Counted from the stretch's first letter, positions 2,025 to 32,298 are shown. The stretch is DNA of 44,077 nucleotides from Shigella phage EP23 (JN984867); one strand, 5' to 3'. Numbers and translations are program-made. Notes: a model not told the origin generated them from the letters alone.

Positions 2025-3545
2025 ATGACCGTTAACGTTGACAACCAGCACCCACTCTATGCGCGCATCGCGCCAGAGTGGAAAATGATTCGCGATTGTG
2101 TAGCAGGGGAGCGCGCCGTGAAGGCGTGCGGACCATTGTATCTGCCACACCCAGCCAGCGGCGACACCACAGACCCGAAATCGCGTGCGCGCTATAAGGC
2201 ATATAAGCAACGCGCTGTCTTCCTGAACGCCACCGCCCGCACACTGAATGCCTTGTTAGGCGTCGCCTTCGCCAAACCGGTGAGTATGGACCTTTCCGGG
2301 GCAATGGCTGACCTGATCGAAGACGTAGACGGCAGCGGGATGCCCCTGGCGCAACTCCTGCGCGGCGCTATGTCGGAAGTGCTGCAATCGGGCCGCGCAG
2401 GCTTTATGGTGGACTATGACCGCCAGGCGCATTTTGACGAACTGGGTAACGTAGTGCCGCAGACAGCCGCTGAAATGGCGGCACACCGCCCGCTTATCCG
2501 CCTGTATACGGCTGAACAGATCATCAACTGGCGGCAGACCCACGGGGTCGACACGCTAATCGTGCTGAAGGAAACGGACGAAATCAGCACCGAAGACCAG
2601 GACGACTTCGCAAACCACGAGGTGACCATCTGGACCGAGCTTCGCATGATTGACGGCAAGGCACACGCCCGCCGCTGGTTTTACAATGCGGACACGTCAG
2701 AAGTGCAAATGGACTTGCCGCGGGGATTCACCCGAACCGACCTTGTTCCACTGGTGGATGCTGACGGTAACGCGCTTACTCAACTGCCATTTTGCTGGTG
2801 TGGTGCTGTGGACAACAACGCGACGCCGGACGCCGCACCGCTGGCGGATATTGCATCCATCAACATTAAGCACTACAACGCCGAAGCAGACGTCGCCGAG
2901 ATTGCGCACATTGTGGGCCAACCTACACTTATTGCGACCGGTCTTACCCAATCATGGGCTGATAAAAACCTGAAGGGTGGCATCGCACTAGGCGCGACTA
3001 AGGGCGTTATCCTGGGCCAGAACATGGACGCTAAACTGCTTCAGGCTGAGGAGAGAAACCTGTCAGTTGCGCTGTGTGAGCGACGCGAATTGCAAATGGC
3101 TAAACTGGGCGCGGCCCTGGTCGAGAAGGGGACCGCACCTAAGACGGCAACTGAAGCGGCCTACGATGCGCAGACTGATAACAGTATCCTGTCACTGATT
3201 GCCGGTAACGTTGAGAAGGCATTCAACCGTGCGCTGCAAATCGTCAAACTGTTCACTGGCGACACCGCAGATCAACGCGTAACGCTGAATAAGTTCTACA
3301 CCGAAATCACGGTTGACGCACAGCTTATGACCGCGATGATGGCTGGTGTGCAGACCGGTACGGTCCGTCTGGCGGACTTTATCAAGTGGATGATGGCCCA
3401 GGGCGTCATTGATGACTCGCAAACCGTTGAGCAGGTGGAAGACGAATTGCGAAATCAGAATCCATTGCCTCAAATGTCCCCGGATGCGGTAGAATCTACC
3501 GAAGAAGACCCGGACAAGGTAGCGGACAATGGCGAAGACAATTAA
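2025..3545 (+). CDS. portal protein
   Basis: 506 aa ORF following terminase, acidic C-terminal tail, typical size and position. Confidence 0.8.
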   Translation: MTVNVDNQHPLYARIAPEWKMIRDCVAGERAVKACGPLYLPHPASGDTTDPKSRARYKAYKQRAVFLNATARTLNALLGVAFAKPVSMDLSGAMADLIEDVDGSGMPLAQLLRGAMSEVLQSGRAGFMVDYDRQAHFDELGNVVPQTAAEMAAHRPLIRLYTAEQIINWRQTHGVDTLIVLKETDEISTEDQDDFANHEVTIWTELRMIDGKAHARRWFYNADTSEVQMDLPRGFTRTDLVPLVDADGNALTQLPFCWCGAVDNNATPDAAPLADIASINIKHYNAEADVAEIAHIVGQPTLIATGLTQSWADKNLKGGIALGATKGVILGQNMDAKLLQAEERNLSVALCERRELQMAKLGAALVEKGTAPKTATEAAYDAQTDNSILSLIAGNVEKAFNRALQIVKLFTGDTADQRVTLNKFYTEITVDAQLMTAMMAGVQTGTVRLADFIKWMMAQGVIDDSQTVEQVEDELRNQNPLPQMSPDAVESTEEDPDKVADNGEDN

Positions 3546-4632
3546 TCAATATATGGCGGATCGAATGATTCGCCGTCACATATTCACCCAGCGCCTGAGC
3601 AATGACCAGGCGCGGAGGGTGCTGGCTATGTGGGAGAAGTTCCGTCCCTCGTTACTTGGTAAGCTGACCGAGTTACTTGATGGCAAAAAATCCATGAATA
3701 ACAAGGCACTATCCACGCTGTTAACGCAACTCGACAAGACAGTTAAAGCAGAATTGCGCACCGAGTTTAAGGCGTTGGCTGAAAGCCTTCAGGAGTTTGC
3801 CGACACGGAGGCCGATTATCTCGCCGACACATTAACGGCAGCGATCCAGCCGGTGGTCGCTGTACCTGCGATCGAGGTGGTTGGCGTAGTGACCGGTGCG
3901 CAGATCGCAGCGACTGCGATGAAAAACCCGTTCCAGGGAAATACCATGATGCAATGGCCCGATTCATTGTCTGAGTGGACCAGGACGCAGATCGGGAATC
4001 AGGTGCGCGCTGGATTCATCCAGGGTAAGCCGACTATGGAAATTATAGCGGACGTGAGGCGCGCGCTCGGCGGTCGTAGTGCGCAAGCTATCTCAAGCGT
4101 TGTTAAGTCCGCAGTCAACCACTATGCGGCGACAGCCCGCGAATTAATGGTAAAAGCTAATGACGATATTCTCGAAGGTCGCCAATGGTTATCTACATTG
4201 GACACGCATACTTCTCCCATGTGCCAGCTACGCGATCGCCTGTTTTATCCGGTTGATGTTACTCCCGACACCAAAGGAAAGCGCGGCGGGAAAATGGTGG
4301 CTGGGTCACAATATGGCGCTGGTCCGGGAAAGTTGCATTATTGTTGCCGGTCGACGGAGACGTGGAAGGTTAAAGGCATGGAAGATTGGCCCAGTGGTAA
4401 GCGTCCGGCACTGAAGGCTGACGCGGGTCGATTGCTGAGTGAGCAGGTCGACGCGCAGACTGATTTCTTCTCATGGGTGCAGCGCCAGCCGCGCCATATC
4501 CTGGAAGAATTATACGGAGTGCAACGCGCCGACCAGATTATGCGCGGCGTGAAAGTGCCGAAGATGTTCACCGATTCAGGCGAACTAATGACTATTGCGC
4601 AGCTTAAAAACCGGGGGTTATGGCGTGATTAA
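3529..4632 (+). CDS. head morphogenesis / minor head protein (Mu gpF / SPP1 gp7-like)
   Basis: 367 aa ORF overlapping portal 3' end; conserved order terminase-portal-F-like. Confidence 0.7.
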   Translation: MAKTINQYMADRMIRRHIFTQRLSNDQARRVLAMWEKFRPSLLGKLTELLDGKKSMNNKALSTLLTQLDKTVKAELRTEFKALAESLQEFADTEADYLADTLTAAIQPVVAVPAIEVVGVVTGAQIAATAMKNPFQGNTMMQWPDSLSEWTRTQIGNQVRAGFIQGKPTMEIIADVRRALGGRSAQAISSVVKSAVNHYAATARELMVKANDDILEGRQWLSTLDTHTSPMCQLRDRLFYPVDVTPDTKGKRGGKMVAGSQYGAGPGKLHYCCRSTETWKVKGMEDWPSGKRPALKADAGRLLSEQVDAQTDFFSWVQRQPRHILEELYGVQRADQIMRGVKVPKMFTDSGELMTIAQLKNRGLWRD

Positions 4633-28831: not shown

Positions 28832-29110
28832 CTATGCGACCAATTCAGCAACCAATAAATCGCAGTCGGATATGTTGTCGATAACGCGAACGTCAGCACC
28901 GCGGCGGGCCATTCGCTCATGTTCACGTACCTGGTGCGGCTTCGGTTTTCCTCCGGGGCGCTTCACTTCGACGAACACTATTTTGCCGTTGATGATAATA
29001 ATCAGGTCGGGCGCACCTGCGCGCCCCTCCCATGCCAGTTTTCGGCAGAATCCGCCAACATCTTTCACCCGTCTCATCAGGTGGCTTTGAATCTTGCCTT
29101 CTGGTGTCAT
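28832..29110 (-). CDS. VRR-NUC domain nuclease (PD-(D/E)XK)
   Basis: GAPDLIIIINGKIVFVEVKRPGGK core; start ATG 29110 overlapping polymerase stop. Confidence 0.55.
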   Translation of the reverse strand: MTPEGKIQSHLMRRVKDVGGFCRKLAWEGRAGAPDLIIIINGKIVFVEVKRPGGKPKPHQVREHERMARRGADVRVIDNISDCDLLVAELVA

Positions 29111-32100
29111 TACTTGCGGTAGCGATACATGCAATCGCCCTCTGCGGCAAGTGGGAAGCCTTTCGCCCAAACCGGCAGGTCGCACATCAGCGCGCACAAC
29201 TCCTCGGTTGTGTAGTCGTCGGTATCCGGCACTTCGGTTATCAGCTCATCGTGTACGGAAAGTACGATCTCATACCCCGCAGCTTCAACGCCAGGCATGG
29301 ACCATGCGAGAATATCGCGGCACAACGCCTGTACGATGTTTTCCGTCAGTTTGCCGCCGTAGGTATACTGGAATCCCCACTGGCGCGTCGTCTGATTCTC
29401 GCCCTGATATTTAATGCGTGTGCTGGTGCGCTTCTTGCCGGTGTCTTCGTCGATCTCGGTCGTGACAGACAGCGCGATGCCAGGGTAGCTCATGATGCGC
29501 CCTGACGGCAACTCAATTTTAAGCCACCACCCCGCCGCGTTCGGGTCGTCGCGCTCCTCGTCGAAGGTCGGGTCATGCTTCGCCTTCGTTCGAACAATTT
29601 TGAGCGCTTTCCTGCCATCCGGGCGAACGTTCGCGCCAGCCCAGTACGCTTTGCCCGGATTGCGGATCGCGCAGAGCACCGCGTCCTCCAGTTCGGCCCA
29701 AAAGGCTACCGTCATCGGGTGAGACTCACGCCACATACGTTTGATCGCGTCACACGTCAGCCACACGTTTTTCGGCAGTATGTAAGTTGGGCGCTCGTCT
29801 TTCTTGCCAGGCTTCGGCGGGCGCTTCTCCTCGTTAATGCGAGCGTACTCATAACCCCGCTTCGCCGCCGCCCAAATGTGATCCGGGAATGTGCCCTTCA
29901 TGACGTCAGCCATAGTGTAAAGGTCGAGGCCCAGGTTTTTAGCGAACTGCAAGAACGCCGCGACGCCGCCACCATAGCCCAGGCCAAGCTCGCAGTTATG
30001 CGCCACCAGAAAACCAGACTTAGACGCAATAAGGAACCGGTTTCCGTCTTCCACATCAATCAGGTCGTAAACCGGCTCGCAATAGGTTAACTTCCCGTTC
30101 CAGTTCAGCAATGCGGGTAAGGGCTTCATCGTACTTTCTCTGAAGCTCGGGCACGCTGCGCCGGTTACGGCAGTTTTCCGAACGGCTGACAAACCGAAGG
30201 TTTCCAGGCTCATAGTCGCCGTCTGTATCGATCCTGTCCATTTCGAAGTCTGGCTTATCCCAGCCGTCCAGCGTTTGAACGTAGAGAAGAAACGACCTTT
30301 TATCTCTCTTCCATTCGTCACATACGGCAATCCCACGACCGCCGTAGTTTTTATACCCTTTGGCGCGGGGGTTTGTCGTTCGTGATATTGCCGCTGACAG
30401 CCGGTTGAGTAGCCGCGTTCTGTGCGCATCGTCTGGCATTGCGTCATCGTAGCAAAAATACTGTTTACGATACCGCTTTGTCGCTTCAATTGCGCAGAGG
30501 TTGCATTGGGATGTTTTACCCCTTCGGACGTTGTCATACCCGACGCGTCCTGGCATCGCTCCGCAATCACATTGGGCCAGCAGTTGTCTGTGACCCTGTC
30601 GTTTTGGTAATTCGCGCAGGATAACCAGGCGTCCATACCTCTCGCCAGGGCGCGGACCATCGTGCACCTGTCTGAAACGAGTTGCCTTGCCTCCTTCCAT
30701 GAATGCGTCAAGATTTTGTGGTCTTCTGTCATCAAGACCCCGTCCACGTCTATCACTGGTTTCCACCCCATAAGGTGCGCGCCTTTTGTACTCACCCATT
30801 TTTCGCCGTTCCATACTTTATCCGTTGATGTTACGGCCATAATATCCTTGAACCCGCCATTGGTCAATACTTGGGTATGGCGGTGCAAGCAAGCCTTACC
30901 GATCTGGCGTAAGTCCTTGCGGTTGGCTTTAATGTAATCCGGGTCAAGGCCGAACATCTTACCGGCAGTCTCGCAATAGATATCGCGACCGGCCTTAAAG
31001 ACCATTAACGCTGTTTTCTCGCCAGCGATCCAGGCAAGTCCACGCCCTTCCACATTGGAGTAGTCCGCTACGACAAACTTCTTGCCCTTCGCCGGAATAA
31101 TGCACCCGCGAACGGTCGAGGCCGTTAGCTTCGATATGTCATACGCCCAGTGTGCGGTCCCGCGTAACAGGGAGTTGATGCCGTTGGTGAGCATGTGCGA
31201 CCGGACCCAAAACGAGACGTCGCTTTCACCCTCGCGGCGTTTAATCTTCCCTTCGTGGTCGTCGCTGTACTCGCCACGCGCCAGGTTTTGAGGCTGGAAG
31301 CCTTTGCCCGCCCAGCGCAGCGTGCGCTTTGCGCCGCCATACTGAAGACACCCACGGCGGCGACCATCTGCGGATAAGCCGTTAACTAGCGGATTGTACT
31401 TAGTCGATGCCGTTGATGACGCCCCGAGGCGCATTTCGATAAGCGCTTTGCCTTCGTCGGGGAAGTCCGGGTCTTCAAGCAGGTCGTTAAGCGTGGATTT
31501 CTGCGCGTTGTGGATCGTGAACGCCGGGGCGATATCACGCAGGATTGGCAGGAAGTCATTGCCTGTCAGCTTACCGCCAAATCGCTCCCAGGCTTCTTCC
31601 TTCAATTCTTCCTTATGCGCCTGCACCGCTTTGATCGCGGCGTTCGCCAGGTCAACGTCGACGTAGAAGCCGCGGTCGTTAATCAACTGGTCGATGAGCA
31701 GGATTTCATCTTCCTTAGGCGAGTTTCCCCAGTCCGGTATGCGCCAGTAGACTTCACGCATTGCGATAATATCCAGCGCGGCATAGCGCAGAAATTTGGC
31801 CCATTCTTCCGGGTGAGTCTCGCGAGTGTAGCGGCGGATTTTGTAGGTCTTAGGGGTAGGCTTACAGAATCGGTTAATCAGCGCCTTGCCTGCCTTATCC
31901 TTCGCGTGCTCTGCGTCAACGCCCAGAACCTGGCACTGCATATCGAGGCTACCGGGCAGCGCGTGGCGAAAGGCCATAATCATAGTGTCTTCGATCTGGC
32001 TTACCGGCAGGTCAATACCCCACTTCTCGCGGATAACCAGGCGGTCAAACAGGAGGCCGTTAGCCATCACTATTTTAGCCTTCTTGCGGGATACCCGGCG

Positions 32101-32298
32101 GAGCGCCTTGCGCAGTTCACGCGGCATTGTGGGGGATTCAGTGGCATCCCATGTCTGCACGCGGCCCTCGTCTATGGCGTAGGTGCAAATCATAATCTCT
32201 GTGGTTGGGTGCTCCGCGTAGGCGTACGCCCCAACTTTCTTCAGGTCCACCCCGCTAAATGTCTCGGTGTCGAGAAACAGGCGTTCGAAGTCTTTCAT
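29110..32298 (-). CDS. family A DNA polymerase with 3'-5' exonuclease domain, interrupted by an intein in motif B
   Basis: Exo motif FLDTETFSG, motif A ADYSNVEGR, motif C LSVHDEL; motif B split as RQIGKA / intein / CELGLGYGG. Confidence 0.9.
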   Translation of the reverse strand: MKDFERLFLDTETFSGVDLKKVGAYAYAEHPTTEIMICTYAIDEGRVQTWDATESPTMPRELRKALRRVSRKKAKIVMANGLLFDRLVIREKWGIDLPVSQIEDTMIMAFRHALPGSLDMQCQVLGVDAEHAKDKAGKALINRFCKPTPKTYKIRRYTRETHPEEWAKFLRYAALDIIAMREVYWRIPDWGNSPKEDEILLIDQLINDRGFYVDVDLANAAIKAVQAHKEELKEEAWERFGGKLTGNDFLPILRDIAPAFTIHNAQKSTLNDLLEDPDFPDEGKALIEMRLGASSTASTKYNPLVNGLSADGRRRGCLQYGGAKRTLRWAGKGFQPQNLARGEYSDDHEGKIKRREGESDVSFWVRSHMLTNGINSLLRGTAHWAYDISKLTASTVRGCIIPAKGKKFVVADYSNVEGRGLAWIAGEKTALMVFKAGRDIYCETAGKMFGLDPDYIKANRKDLRQIGKACLHRHTQVLTNGGFKDIMAVTSTDKVWNGEKWVSTKGAHLMGWKPVIDVDGVLMTEDHKILTHSWKEARQLVSDRCTMVRALARGMDAWLSCANYQNDRVTDNCWPNVIAERCQDASGMTTSEGVKHPNATSAQLKRQSGIVNSIFATMTQCQTMRTERGYSTGCQRQYHERQTPAPKGIKTTAVVGLPYVTNGREIKGRFFSTFKRWTAGISQTSKWTGSIQTATMSLETFGLSAVRKTAVTGAACPSFRESTMKPLPALLNWNGKLTYCEPVYDLIDVEDGNRFLIASKSGFLVAHNCELGLGYGGGVAAFLQFAKNLGLDLYTMADVMKGTFPDHIWAAAKRGYEYARINEEKRPPKPGKKDERPTYILPKNVWLTCDAIKRMWRESHPMTVAFWAELEDAVLCAIRNPGKAYWAGANVRPDGRKALKIVRTKAKHDPTFDEERDDPNAAGWWLKIELPSGRIMSYPGIALSVTTEIDEDTGKKRTSTRIKYQGENQTTRQWGFQYTYGGKLTENIVQALCRDILAWSMPGVEAAGYEIVLSVHDELITEVPDTDDYTTEELCALMCDLPVWAKGFPLAAEGDCMYRYRK
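29995..30891 (-). mobile_element. intein (299 aa) in DNA polymerase motif B
   Basis: Insert starts with Cys (codon 30889-30891), ends ...LVAHN followed by Cys (+1); Hint-like blocks CLHRHTQVLTNGG, TEDHKIL, VYDLIDVEDGNRFLIASKSGFLVAHN; excision restores R-x3-K-x3-LG-x2-YG. Confidence 0.8.
30056..30814 (-). CDS. HNH homing endonuclease encoded in an alternative frame inside the intein
   Basis: YGRLVIL...CDCG...RGKTSQCNLC and GYKNYGGRGIAVCDEW...DRIDTDGDYEPGNLRFVSRSENCRNR match phage HNH/His-Me finger proteins; frame differs from polymerase (30814 mod 3 = 1 vs 32298 mod 3 = 0); true start may be an internal Met (~30700). Confidence 0.7.
   Translation of the reverse strand: MERRKMGEYKRRAPYGVETSDRRGRGLDDRRPQNLDAFMEGGKATRFRQVHDGPRPGERYGRLVILRELPKRQGHRQLLAQCDCGAMPGRVGYDNVRRGKTSQCNLCAIEATKRYRKQYFCYDDAMPDDAHRTRLLNRLSAAISRTTNPRAKGYKNYGGRGIAVCDEWKRDKRSFLLYVQTLDGWDKPDFEMDRIDTDGDYEPGNLRFVSRSENCRNRRSVPELQRKYDEALTRIAELEREVNLLRAGLRPD

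Follow-up and report, generated by a model that had tools for sequence, protein, structure and literature searches.

Polymerase gene and its insert

The window analyzed here is the whole 44,077-nucleotide (nt) sequence of Shigella phage EP23 (JN984867), a Dhillonvirus-like phage (IMG/VR UViG_2597490041). Its family-A DNA polymerase gene contains, within motif B, an insert with two long reading frames on the same strand, which appears to be an intein in the polymerase frame and to code for a nuclease in the other, and this insert is the subject of the present study. The polymerase open reading frame (ORF) matches the Pfam family DNA_pol_A (E value of 1.7e-13), and its relatives are annotated as DNA polymerases or intein-containing precursors. 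The features of the locus are the following:

29110..32298, minus strand: gene for the family-A DNA polymerase precursor (1062 codons and a stop), with N-extein, intein, and C-extein in a single open frame
30892..32298, minus strand: N-extein, 469 codons, ending in ...RKDLRQIGKA, the first half of motif B
29995..30891, minus strand: intein, 299 codons, from Cys1 to His298-Asn299, followed by Cys+1
30607..30891, minus strand: N-terminal splicing (Hint) part, intein residues 1 to 95 in the polymerase frame, boundaries approximate
30718..30729, minus strand: intein block B, T55-E-D-H58, with T55 and H58 invariant in 32 diverse family members
30127..30606, minus strand: "shadow" linker, intein residues ~96 to 255 in the polymerase frame, open but unconserved as protein, boundaries approximate
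29995..30126, minus strand: C-terminal splicing part with blocks F and G, intein residues 256 to 299, ...PVYDLIDVEDGNRFLIASKSGFLVAHN, with D, F, G, H, and N invariant
29110..29994, minus strand: C-extein, from CELGLGYGGG (the second half of motif B) to the stop codon
30056..30799, minus strand: putative nuclease gene nested wholly within the intein, -1 frame, 247 codons and a stop

The context of the insert reads ...DLRQIGKA / CLHRHTQ...TEDHKILTH...FLVAHN / CELGLGYGGG. A first-pass annotation, made by a model from the sequence alone, had described a motif B insert of 299 codons that begins with Cys, ends in His-Asn, and is followed by Cys, and both coordinates and translation agree with this description. 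It had also stated that removal of the insert restores motif B. When the insert is excised in silico, the result is RQIGKACELGLGYGGG and a protein of 764 amino acids (aa), and the four intein-less Dhillonvirus polymerases that we read are 764 aa long and carry RQIGKACELGLGYGGG, matching the predicted splice product in both length and junction. The nested frame is offset by -1 relative to the polymerase frame (alternatively written +2), and the full overlap of the two frames is 744 nt. Taken mechanically, the nested ORF extends over 30056-30814 of the same strand (252 aa), five codons longer upstream than the conserved start that we have adopted. An example of the peptide encoded by the shadow linker in the polymerase frame is IVNSIFATMTQCQTMR.

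Intein identity of the insert ends

Used as a single sequence, the insert had no relevant match in Pfam, NCBIfam, or PDB, and a homolog search with the polymerase-frame intein yielded only five proteins. The first 100 residues and the final 42, taken from 32 diverse copies, were made into a profile, and when this was searched against all PDB sequences, the top 11 matches were all inteins. The matches included the NEQ068 split-intein half of Nanoarchaeum (8e-5) and the Mtu RecA mini-inteins (4e-4 to 1e-3), followed by Spl DnaX (8e-3) and Ssp DnaB (0.02). A Hint-domain match for the N- and C-terminal blocks, which the first-pass annotation had proposed as a test of its reading, was thus obtained with the profile. 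Among the 32 copies, C1, T55, H58, the block F Asp, and the terminal His-Asn are invariant, the pattern VYD...NRF...VHN is conserved, and D119, F129, G136, H141, and N142 (numbered on the construct that joins the N- and C-terminal parts) do not vary. Judged from these blocks, the insert is a class-1 intein located in motif B of the polymerase, and we infer protein splicing from its conserved catalytic residues together with this location. Motif B is the O-helix region in polymerases of family A, which is unlikely to tolerate a loop of 299 residues.

Selection and stop avoidance in the two frames

The 897-nt insert is found ungapped in 161 phage records, with identities of 82 to 99%. It occurs at 95 to 100% identity in 7 records (Dhillonviruses, including Sodalis phage SO-1) and at 82 to 84% in about 150 (Jerseyviruses, e.g., SETP3, Ent1, and LP31); both frames are still open in SETP3 and LP31. 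At least 75 further diverged metagenomic loci have the identical frame relation.

Variable sites were counted by codon position over 11 distinct copies of the insert, position 2 of the polymerase codons being position 3 of the nested ones. For polymerase codon positions 1, 2, and 3, respectively, we counted 6, 0, and 11 variable sites in nt 0 to 77 of the insert and 1, 0, and 11 in nt 836 to 897, while the middle gave 9, 51, and 14 (nt 230 to 500) and 11, 56, and 27 (nt 500 to 760). The ratios of nonsynonymous to synonymous substitution rates (dN/dS), calculated by the Nei-Gojobori method per frame and segment, follow the same pattern. In the polymerase frame they are 0.05 to 0.16 for the N-terminal splicing part and 0.04 to 0.13 for the C-terminal one, and 1.0 to 1.75 in the middle (nt 231 to 759). 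The nested frame has values of 0.10 to 0.13 in the middle and 0.5 to 1.2 where it overlaps the splicing parts, and its value of about 0.1 is maintained across 176 codons in all of the pairs tested. The selected frame switches along the insert, from polymerase to nested and back to polymerase. Because nested dN/dS is low in the middle and the polymerase frame is neutral there, the middle of the insert codes for protein in the nested frame. The stretch of roughly 580 nt that the first-pass annotation had noted as open in both frames corresponds to nt ~170 to 750 of the insert, where substitutions track the nested frame.

The polymerase frame is nevertheless free of stops throughout. In synonymous shuffles of the nested gene, carried out on four diverged copies, the polymerase frame acquired a mean of 5.2 to 6.2 stops, and none of the 5,000 shuffles of each copy was stop-free, while all four natural copies have zero stops in this frame. 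The third frame of the insert contains 22 stops, and in L006 and L105 (described below), the two relatives of the nested gene that are truly free-standing, the equivalent frame has 19 stops. The polymerase frame is stop-free beyond chance and therefore must be read through, which rules out two programmed shifts. The shadow linker is rich in T, S, A, and R, as is the +1 frame of the free-standing relatives. We also considered selection for a benign linker composition, which is unsupported, as the makeup of the linker equals that of this +1 frame.

One record departs from the common arrangement. Salmonella phage SS3e (L017/L031) has two single-base homopolymer insertions, at intein nt 33 and 305 (GATGG to GATGGG and GAC to GACC), which break the polymerase frame and yield an annotated 268-aa "HNH endonuclease" that joins the N-terminal Hint part to the nuclease frame. 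In this old record, the only one with merged frames, the insertions probably stem from sequencing errors.

A family of two-frame inteins

In a collection of 5.8 billion proteins, 1,707 are related to the nested protein, nearly all of them 235 to 265 aa long. A relative is encoded at 280 IMG/VR loci, of which the best 80 were analyzed. In 67 of 67 diverged loci (38 to 55% identity), the frame equivalent to that of the polymerase contains no stops, compared to 14.5 on average for the other one, and its translation is a full family-A polymerase with a motif B intein. Boundaries could be placed in 71 loci, where the inteins are 277 to 299 aa long and have the form C1...HN/C+1 with a Trp at position 32; Ser+1 replaces Cys+1 in two of them (L058 and L066). 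The motif B insertion is found at no fewer than three positions, 1 to 4 residues apart (L019-L098), namely, K+2 in EP23 (GKA/CELGLGY), K+3 in some loci (GKIA/CLALGY), and K+6 in many (GKVQELA/CGFAGG).

Conservation is reciprocal between the two frames. Among 61 members, the polymerase frame is conserved at intein residues 1 to 60, 81 to 90, and 271 to 299 and poorly so in between (0.06 to 0.39), with values of 0.18 to 0.3 for the shadow linker. The nested frame is conserved at its residues ~40 to 220, and its first ~40 residues, which overlap the N-terminal Hint part and are predicted to be disordered, are poorly conserved. The nested ORF is intact in 69 of the 71 loci, even though it has diverged to about 40% identity. 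The two-frame design is hence confirmed as real, under selection, and common to a large family of phage polymerase inteins.

In the two remaining loci, L068 and L069 (intein at ~3001-3702 within the polymerase ORF), the nested ORF is broken four codons past the conserved start, and the polymerase frame and the intein boundaries are intact. These are possibly cases of a decaying nuclease within an intein that may still splice.

Protein databases give a different picture of the family, as nested nucleases pass for free-standing proteins because gene calls report them as ordinary genes. Four loci (L005, L007, L106, and L107) looked free-standing in their gene calls, yet translation of the other frame places them within polymerase inteins. 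L005 and L007 had been candidates for free-standing relatives and were rejected on this translation; among the loci examined, only L006 and L105 are truly free-standing. The automatic calls on these four loci split or drop the polymerase, leaving, for example, an 80-aa "DNA_pol_A" fragment in L107.

The putative nested nuclease

The nested protein has weak links to solved nucleases and curated models. It matches PHROG HNH endonuclease families, from phrog_374 (E value of 2e-47) down to a match of only the 30-residue catalytic segment, and the PHROG "endonuclease VII" match is weak (3e-5). There was no HNH match in Pfam for the nested protein, although one relative gave a sub-threshold HNH_3 match, and as a single sequence it had no relevant match in PDB or NCBIfam. 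A profile of the nested protein matched PDB sequences only in its zinc ribbon and coiled-coil segments.

An AlphaFold2 (AF2) model of the nested protein, built with an alignment of 16 sequences, has a pLDDT (predicted local distance difference test) score of 80 to 95 for residues 55 to 250 and below 50 for residues 1 to 50. The predicted fold consists of a small beta domain, a segment with four Cys, helices, a beta hairpin (residues 190 to 194 and 206 to 210), and a long helix that continues into a coiled coil. The two strands of the hairpin and the helix from residue 211 are predicted (pLDDT of ~90) to have beta-beta-alpha-metal topology. Two segments of the gene correspond to these elements:

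30494..30571, minus strand: Cys-x-Cys ... Cys-x-x-Cys, a putative zinc ribbon, with the four Cys invariant (alignment A1) and weak zinc ribbon matches
30155..30247, minus strand: putative beta-beta-alpha-metal catalytic motif, FEMDRIDTDGDYEPGNLRFVSRSENCRNRRS

The position of the canonical catalytic His is occupied by Arg194 (D193-R194-I-D), which is invariant in 16 aligned relatives. Y201, in the loop between the strands, and N205, N214, and N217 are invariant as well. The three Asn were assigned, by their position in the model, to the Asn of the loop or second strand and to the metal-binding Asn/His of the helix. The first-pass annotation had spoken of a complete HNH/His-Me finger endonuclease. 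The predicted fold and the PHROG HNH families agree with this assignment, but the catalytic His is an Arg and Pfam has no HNH match, so the term "complete" does not stand.

Foldseek with the nested model found nothing in PDB. Against predicted viral structures it found 96 matches with an E value of ≤1e-3, the top one being the nested ORF of Salmonella phage LPSE1 ("uncharacterized" in UniProt); among the rest are many free-standing proteins of phages whose annotation is HNH homing endonuclease or AP2-domain protein. The enzyme PacI lacks the catalytic His and uses a loop Tyr instead, as described in a classification of His-Me finger nucleases (PMC5714182). From the residue pattern and a weak structural match, the nested protein would be a PacI-like variant of the His-Me finger. 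PacI (PDB 3m7k; group 20 in PMC5714182) resembles it in having no catalytic His and a Tyr in the loop between the two strands. The similarity is weak, sequence searches give no link between the two proteins, and the equivalence of Tyr201 is putative. Their architecture also differs, the nested protein having a beta barrel and zinc ribbon on the N-terminal side and a coiled-coil tail.

The superfamily to which the nuclease core belongs is large, with 84,123 cluster representatives at an E value of ≤1e-3, many of them with two to five repeated matches per protein. Pfam models scarcely detect it. No in-frame fusion was seen among the best 150 of the 84,123 representative relatives.

Probable expression of the nested gene

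Two features at the 5' end of the nested gene could serve its translation:

30797..30799, minus strand: conserved nested start codon, assembled from the third base of intein codon 31 followed by the TG of the Trp32 codon; second ATG of the ORF
30805..30813, minus strand: Trp-Asn-Gly codons (Trp-Asp-Gly in most relatives), a Shine-Dalgarno-like sequence upstream of the nested start

A start codon is present at the Trp32 position in 70 of 71 loci (ATG in 57, GTG in 11, and TTG in 2). A stop in the nested frame lies 0 to 8 codons upstream of it in many loci, and directly upstream in the Jerseyviruses. The codon before Trp32 is biased toward a final A (TCA in 9/9, GCA in 5/5, AAA in 5/5, and GAA in 25/34, with 14 to 38% expected from codon usage), in counts that ignore shared ancestry. 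Paired with the 3' end of the 16S rRNA, the 17 nt upstream of the start have a family mean of -6.8 kcal/mol, compared to -2.7 elsewhere in the genes (p of ~1e-32). At the other end, the nested stop TAA can be formed from the terminal His-Asn codons CAT AAC, in which case the nested ORF spans the whole C-terminal splicing part; this arrangement is found in L035, L054, L056, L057, L060-L064, L067, L070, L085, L088, L090, L095, and L096. Judging from these signals, independent internal initiation is the likeliest route of expression.

Mobility and possible origin

The distribution of the insert is sporadic. It is present in about 8 of 156 Dhillonvirus records, while about 148 align contiguously across the exact site, and most Jerseyviruses carry it. 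The inteins of five intein-plus Dhillonviruses are only 0.8 to 1.2% apart, compared to 4 to 12% in the flanking polymerase. With respect to the Jerseyvirus SETP3, divergence is 17% in the intein and 27 to 38% in the exteins. Given these figures, double coding alone is insufficient to account for the contrast between intein and exteins.

The flanks of the insertion site are also informative. Between EP23 and the intein-minus phage UDS3lw, divergence rises from 1%, in the 400 nt that precede the site, to 10% just after it. The junction is GCT/TGC GAG CTT (GCT/TGCGAGCTT) in five of five intein-plus Dhillonviruses, with GAG CTT also found in SETP3, and GCG/TGC GAA TTG (GCG/TGCGAATTG) in four of four intein-minus alleles, all of the differences being synonymous. 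The intein-less site in the polymerase DNA of UDS3lw and PaulFeyerabend reads ...GGTAAGGCG/TGCGAATTGGG.... Such flank markers and the breakpoint look like the usual footprints of homing with coconversion, or of target-site immunity.

Each of the two free-standing relatives (L006:2047-4798 and L105:2053-4789) lies 71 nt downstream of a family-A polymerase gene that has no intein; motif B of this gene is RQIGKVAHLGLGFG in L006 and RQLAKVAQLGLGYG in L105. This neighborhood fits an origin from a polymerase-targeting nuclease that may have lodged in the intein.

Proposed mechanism and alternative explanations

We consider it highly probable that the insert is a composite mobile element, formed by a motif B intein in which a homing nuclease gene is overprinted in the -1 frame. 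The first-pass annotation had reached a similar reading, that of an overlapping endonuclease gene with the overlap used by the intein as a linker, and the intein profile, frame-specific dN/dS, stop avoidance, and conserved start all agree with it. Ribosomes translating the polymerase would read straight across the insert. The splicing (Hint) domain would be formed by ~95 residues at the start of the intein and ~45 at its end, and the ~160 between them would be a meaningless shadow of the nuclease gene. Separate ribosomes would initiate at the ATG on the Trp32 codon of the intein and produce a free 247-aa nuclease of ~28 kDa that begins with MGEYK, with a disordered leader of ~50 residues followed by the zinc ribbon, the beta-beta-alpha-metal core, and the coiled-coil tail. 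This nuclease would probably cut intein-less polymerase alleles near the insertion site in a mixed infection, and recombinational repair would copy the entire element into the cut allele (homing).

Several points weigh against this interpretation. Splicing, independent initiation, and the activity and target of the nuclease are all inferred from sequence. The Shine-Dalgarno-like site is weak in EP23 itself (-3.9 kcal/mol), and the signal in the family may in part simply follow from conservation of the Trp-Asp-Gly codons. For the intein in the polymerase frame, AF2 run on the single sequence gave an uninformative model (pLDDT of 33), and disorder of the linker is suggested by its missing conservation. 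Last, double coding would by itself lead one to expect part of the low divergence of the inteins, and in the comparison with SETP3, too, the intein is less diverged than the exteins.

Among the alternatives, the one that survives best is still very unlikely. According to it, the nested gene is a relic: a free-standing nuclease gene entered a mini-intein, is now untranslated or nonfunctional, and the intein is vertically inherited. The interrupted nested ORFs of L068 and L069, with the polymerase frame open, would be expected under this explanation, as would the missing canonical catalytic His and the weak Shine-Dalgarno-like site of EP23. However, a relic would not keep a nested dN/dS of ~0.1 over 176 codons, an intact ORF in 69 of 71 loci, and a conserved start, and vertical inheritance is at odds with the sporadic distribution, the occurrence of almost the same intein on backgrounds that have diverged, and the linkage of the flank markers.

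Less likely again is programmed frameshifting, either as a double shift (-1 after the N-terminal Hint part and +1 before the C-terminal one) or as a single -1 shift that would give a fusion of N-extein, N-terminal Hint part, and nuclease. The nested frame is indeed the -1 frame, reachable by a -1 shift, and there is an A run (GAAAAAT) at the nested start of EP23. A double shift, however, gives no cause for the polymerase frame to be open in the middle, as it is in every copy. Inspection of the start contexts by eye found no conserved slippery site; there is no conserved slippery heptamer, and most relatives have GTNGAATGGGT at this place. The start codon of 70 of the 71 loci, the Shine-Dalgarno-like sequence, and the stop 0 to 8 codons upstream in many of them also argue for initiation rather than shifting.

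An insertion that does not splice, with its 299 residues retained as a tolerated loop of the polymerase, has an even smaller probability. There is a precedent in ShiLan, where an out-of-frame HNH insertion is read through and has no splicing domain (PMC11855218), and the single-sequence searches of Pfam and NCBIfam gave no Hint match. Against such a loop, all of the intein catalytic residues are invariant across the family, and the profile is homologous to solved inteins. The location in motif B, where a loop of this length is unlikely to be tolerated, also speaks against it.

The two other alternatives are extremely improbable. The one offered by the first-pass annotation, two compensating indels in the assembly that hide a canonical in-frame endonuclease, is refuted: SS3e does bear two homopolymer insertions that fuse the N-terminal Hint part to the nuclease frame, but these break the polymerase frame and repair nothing, 161 ungapped records and at least 75 diverged loci agree with each other, and a polymerase frame that was not read would not stay stop-free (0 of 5,000 shuffles, and 19 stops in the free-standing relatives). 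A group I (type I self-splicing) intron is named in the GenBank/RefSeq notes of SO-1 (gp38 and gp39), and phage polymerase group I introns with HNH genes have been reported (PMC3428280), but here the polymerase frame is open throughout and the ends are conserved intein blocks under purifying selection, and a search of Rfam over 29800-31100 found no group I intron or other RNA family at E values up to 1. We consider the SO-1 intron note to be wrong.

Relation to known systems

The closest precedent for the composite element is found in actinobacteriophage inteins, for which a 2025 preprint describes antisense LAGLIDADG and Vsr-like endonucleases and a same-strand "frame 3" endonuclease that is endonuclease VII-like (bioRxiv 10.1101/2025.01.02.630785). 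Its authors call the "frame 3" case unreported and propose invasion by free-standing endonucleases. As in EP23, the endonuclease is on the same strand and outside the intein frame, and no structure can be recognized when the middle is translated in frame. The differences are considerable. The actinophage nuclease is endonuclease VII-like with its core at residues 1 to 67 (matching PDB 1E7D), while the EP23 core is C-terminal, at residues 190 to 220 (DRID...Y...N...N). The host genes of the actinophage inteins are those of Pol III alpha, minor capsid protein, terminase, and thymidylate synthase, compared to motif B of PolA in the EP23 family, and the hosts are the actinophages of the preprint versus enterobacterial and many uncultured phages. 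In the EP23 family, the nested ORF starts within the N-terminal splicing part, at Trp32, and runs into the C-terminal part, with start and stop signals made from intein codons. Last, the preprint treats the out-of-frame state as rare and possibly transitional, whereas in the EP23 family it is conserved down to ~40% nuclease identity.

A hidden out-of-frame HNH is also known from ShiLan, within an insertion in a mycobacteriophage DNA methylase (PMC11855218). That insertion is likewise open in the frame of the host gene, its distribution suggests homing, and translation of the nuclease is an open question. In contrast to the EP23 insert, which has the parts of a complete intein, no splicing domain can be detected in it, and it is presumed to stay in the protein as a loop. 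Fractured genes provide another likeness, since they have an endonuclease gene of the free-standing type between split-intein halves, translated on its own (Dassa et al. 2009, PMC2677866). The host gene is split and trans-spliced there, and the nuclease is Vsr-like; the EP23 intein is contiguous and would splice in cis. With canonical inteins, the EP23 element shares the position of the endonuclease DNA, with one splicing part on either side, and a presumed cycle of splicing and homing. Canonical endonucleases are a domain of the intein polypeptide, while in EP23 the nuclease would be a separate polypeptide in another frame, its place in the intein being taken by an unconserved linker.

In the GenBank record of SO-1 the two overlapping genes are both annotated, and the intein is marked in several Jerseyvirus records. 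In view of the 2025 preprint and the SO-1 annotation, the arrangement is less unusual than the first-pass annotation had assumed. We found no paper that describes this polymerase intein family, in a literature search of incomplete coverage (most subscription journals and InBase lay outside it), and an earlier mention is possible. An out-of-frame intein nuclease is not categorically new, and the EP23 family stands as a variant distinct from the known cases, being much larger and better constrained.

Significance of the two-frame module

In textbook inteins, the homing endonuclease is an in-frame domain. The EP23 family suggests a bolder claim, for which we see the chances as evenly balanced: that the two-frame module is old and stable, derived from one ancestral -1 fusion of a free-standing polymerase-targeting nuclease, and has spread among hundreds of phage polymerases, at three motif B positions, with interdependent signals and a PacI-like, Tyr-dependent enzyme. 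If this were true, the out-of-frame state would itself be advantageous, e.g., by keeping an active nuclease off the polymerase precursor and allowing its dose to be set independently. It would also be direct evidence for the model of intein evolution in which the splicing element comes first and the endonuclease invades later. How endonucleases were acquired is an open question in the origin of inteins, and free-standing relatives beside intein-less polymerases are the starting point that the invasion model predicts.

The family matters in other respects. It is a natural case of long-term dual coding, with ~740 nt kept in two frames while the nuclease diverged to 40% identity. In genome annotation, gene callers miss the nuclease or else cut the polymerase into pieces. 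For engineering, the intein appears to tolerate an unconserved linker of ~160 residues; the nuclease may represent a rare kind of enzyme, His-less and PacI-like, whose target in the polymerase gene is long. The system is tractable, as it is found in ordinary Escherichia coli and Salmonella phages with natural intein-plus and intein-minus pairs.

Additional inteins and nuclease genes

Two of the metagenomic polymerases contain a second intein. In L074 (4103-4573) it is a mini-intein of 157 aa at YGGKxxEN/C, in a polymerase that also bears the motif B intein, and it has no nested ORF, with five to six stops in the other frames. In L096 (4316-5095) the second intein has 260 aa and occupies another site of the same polymerase (YGGKL/C...HN/CENATQ). 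It contains a related nuclease (...NYGGRGIAVCDRW...LDRQDNNGGYTPENCRWAT...) in the +1 frame relative to the polymerase, whose own frame is open, and its sequence suggests that out-of-frame capture has recurred independently here.

Neither EP23, Pubbukkers, nor the intein-less Dhillonviruses have a gene of the size of gp37 between the polymerase and the VRR-NUC/resolvase gene. At this place, SO-1 (gp37, L001:242-844) and SETP3 (gp37, L003:232-729) carry an extra gene, annotated as a free-standing HNH endonuclease.

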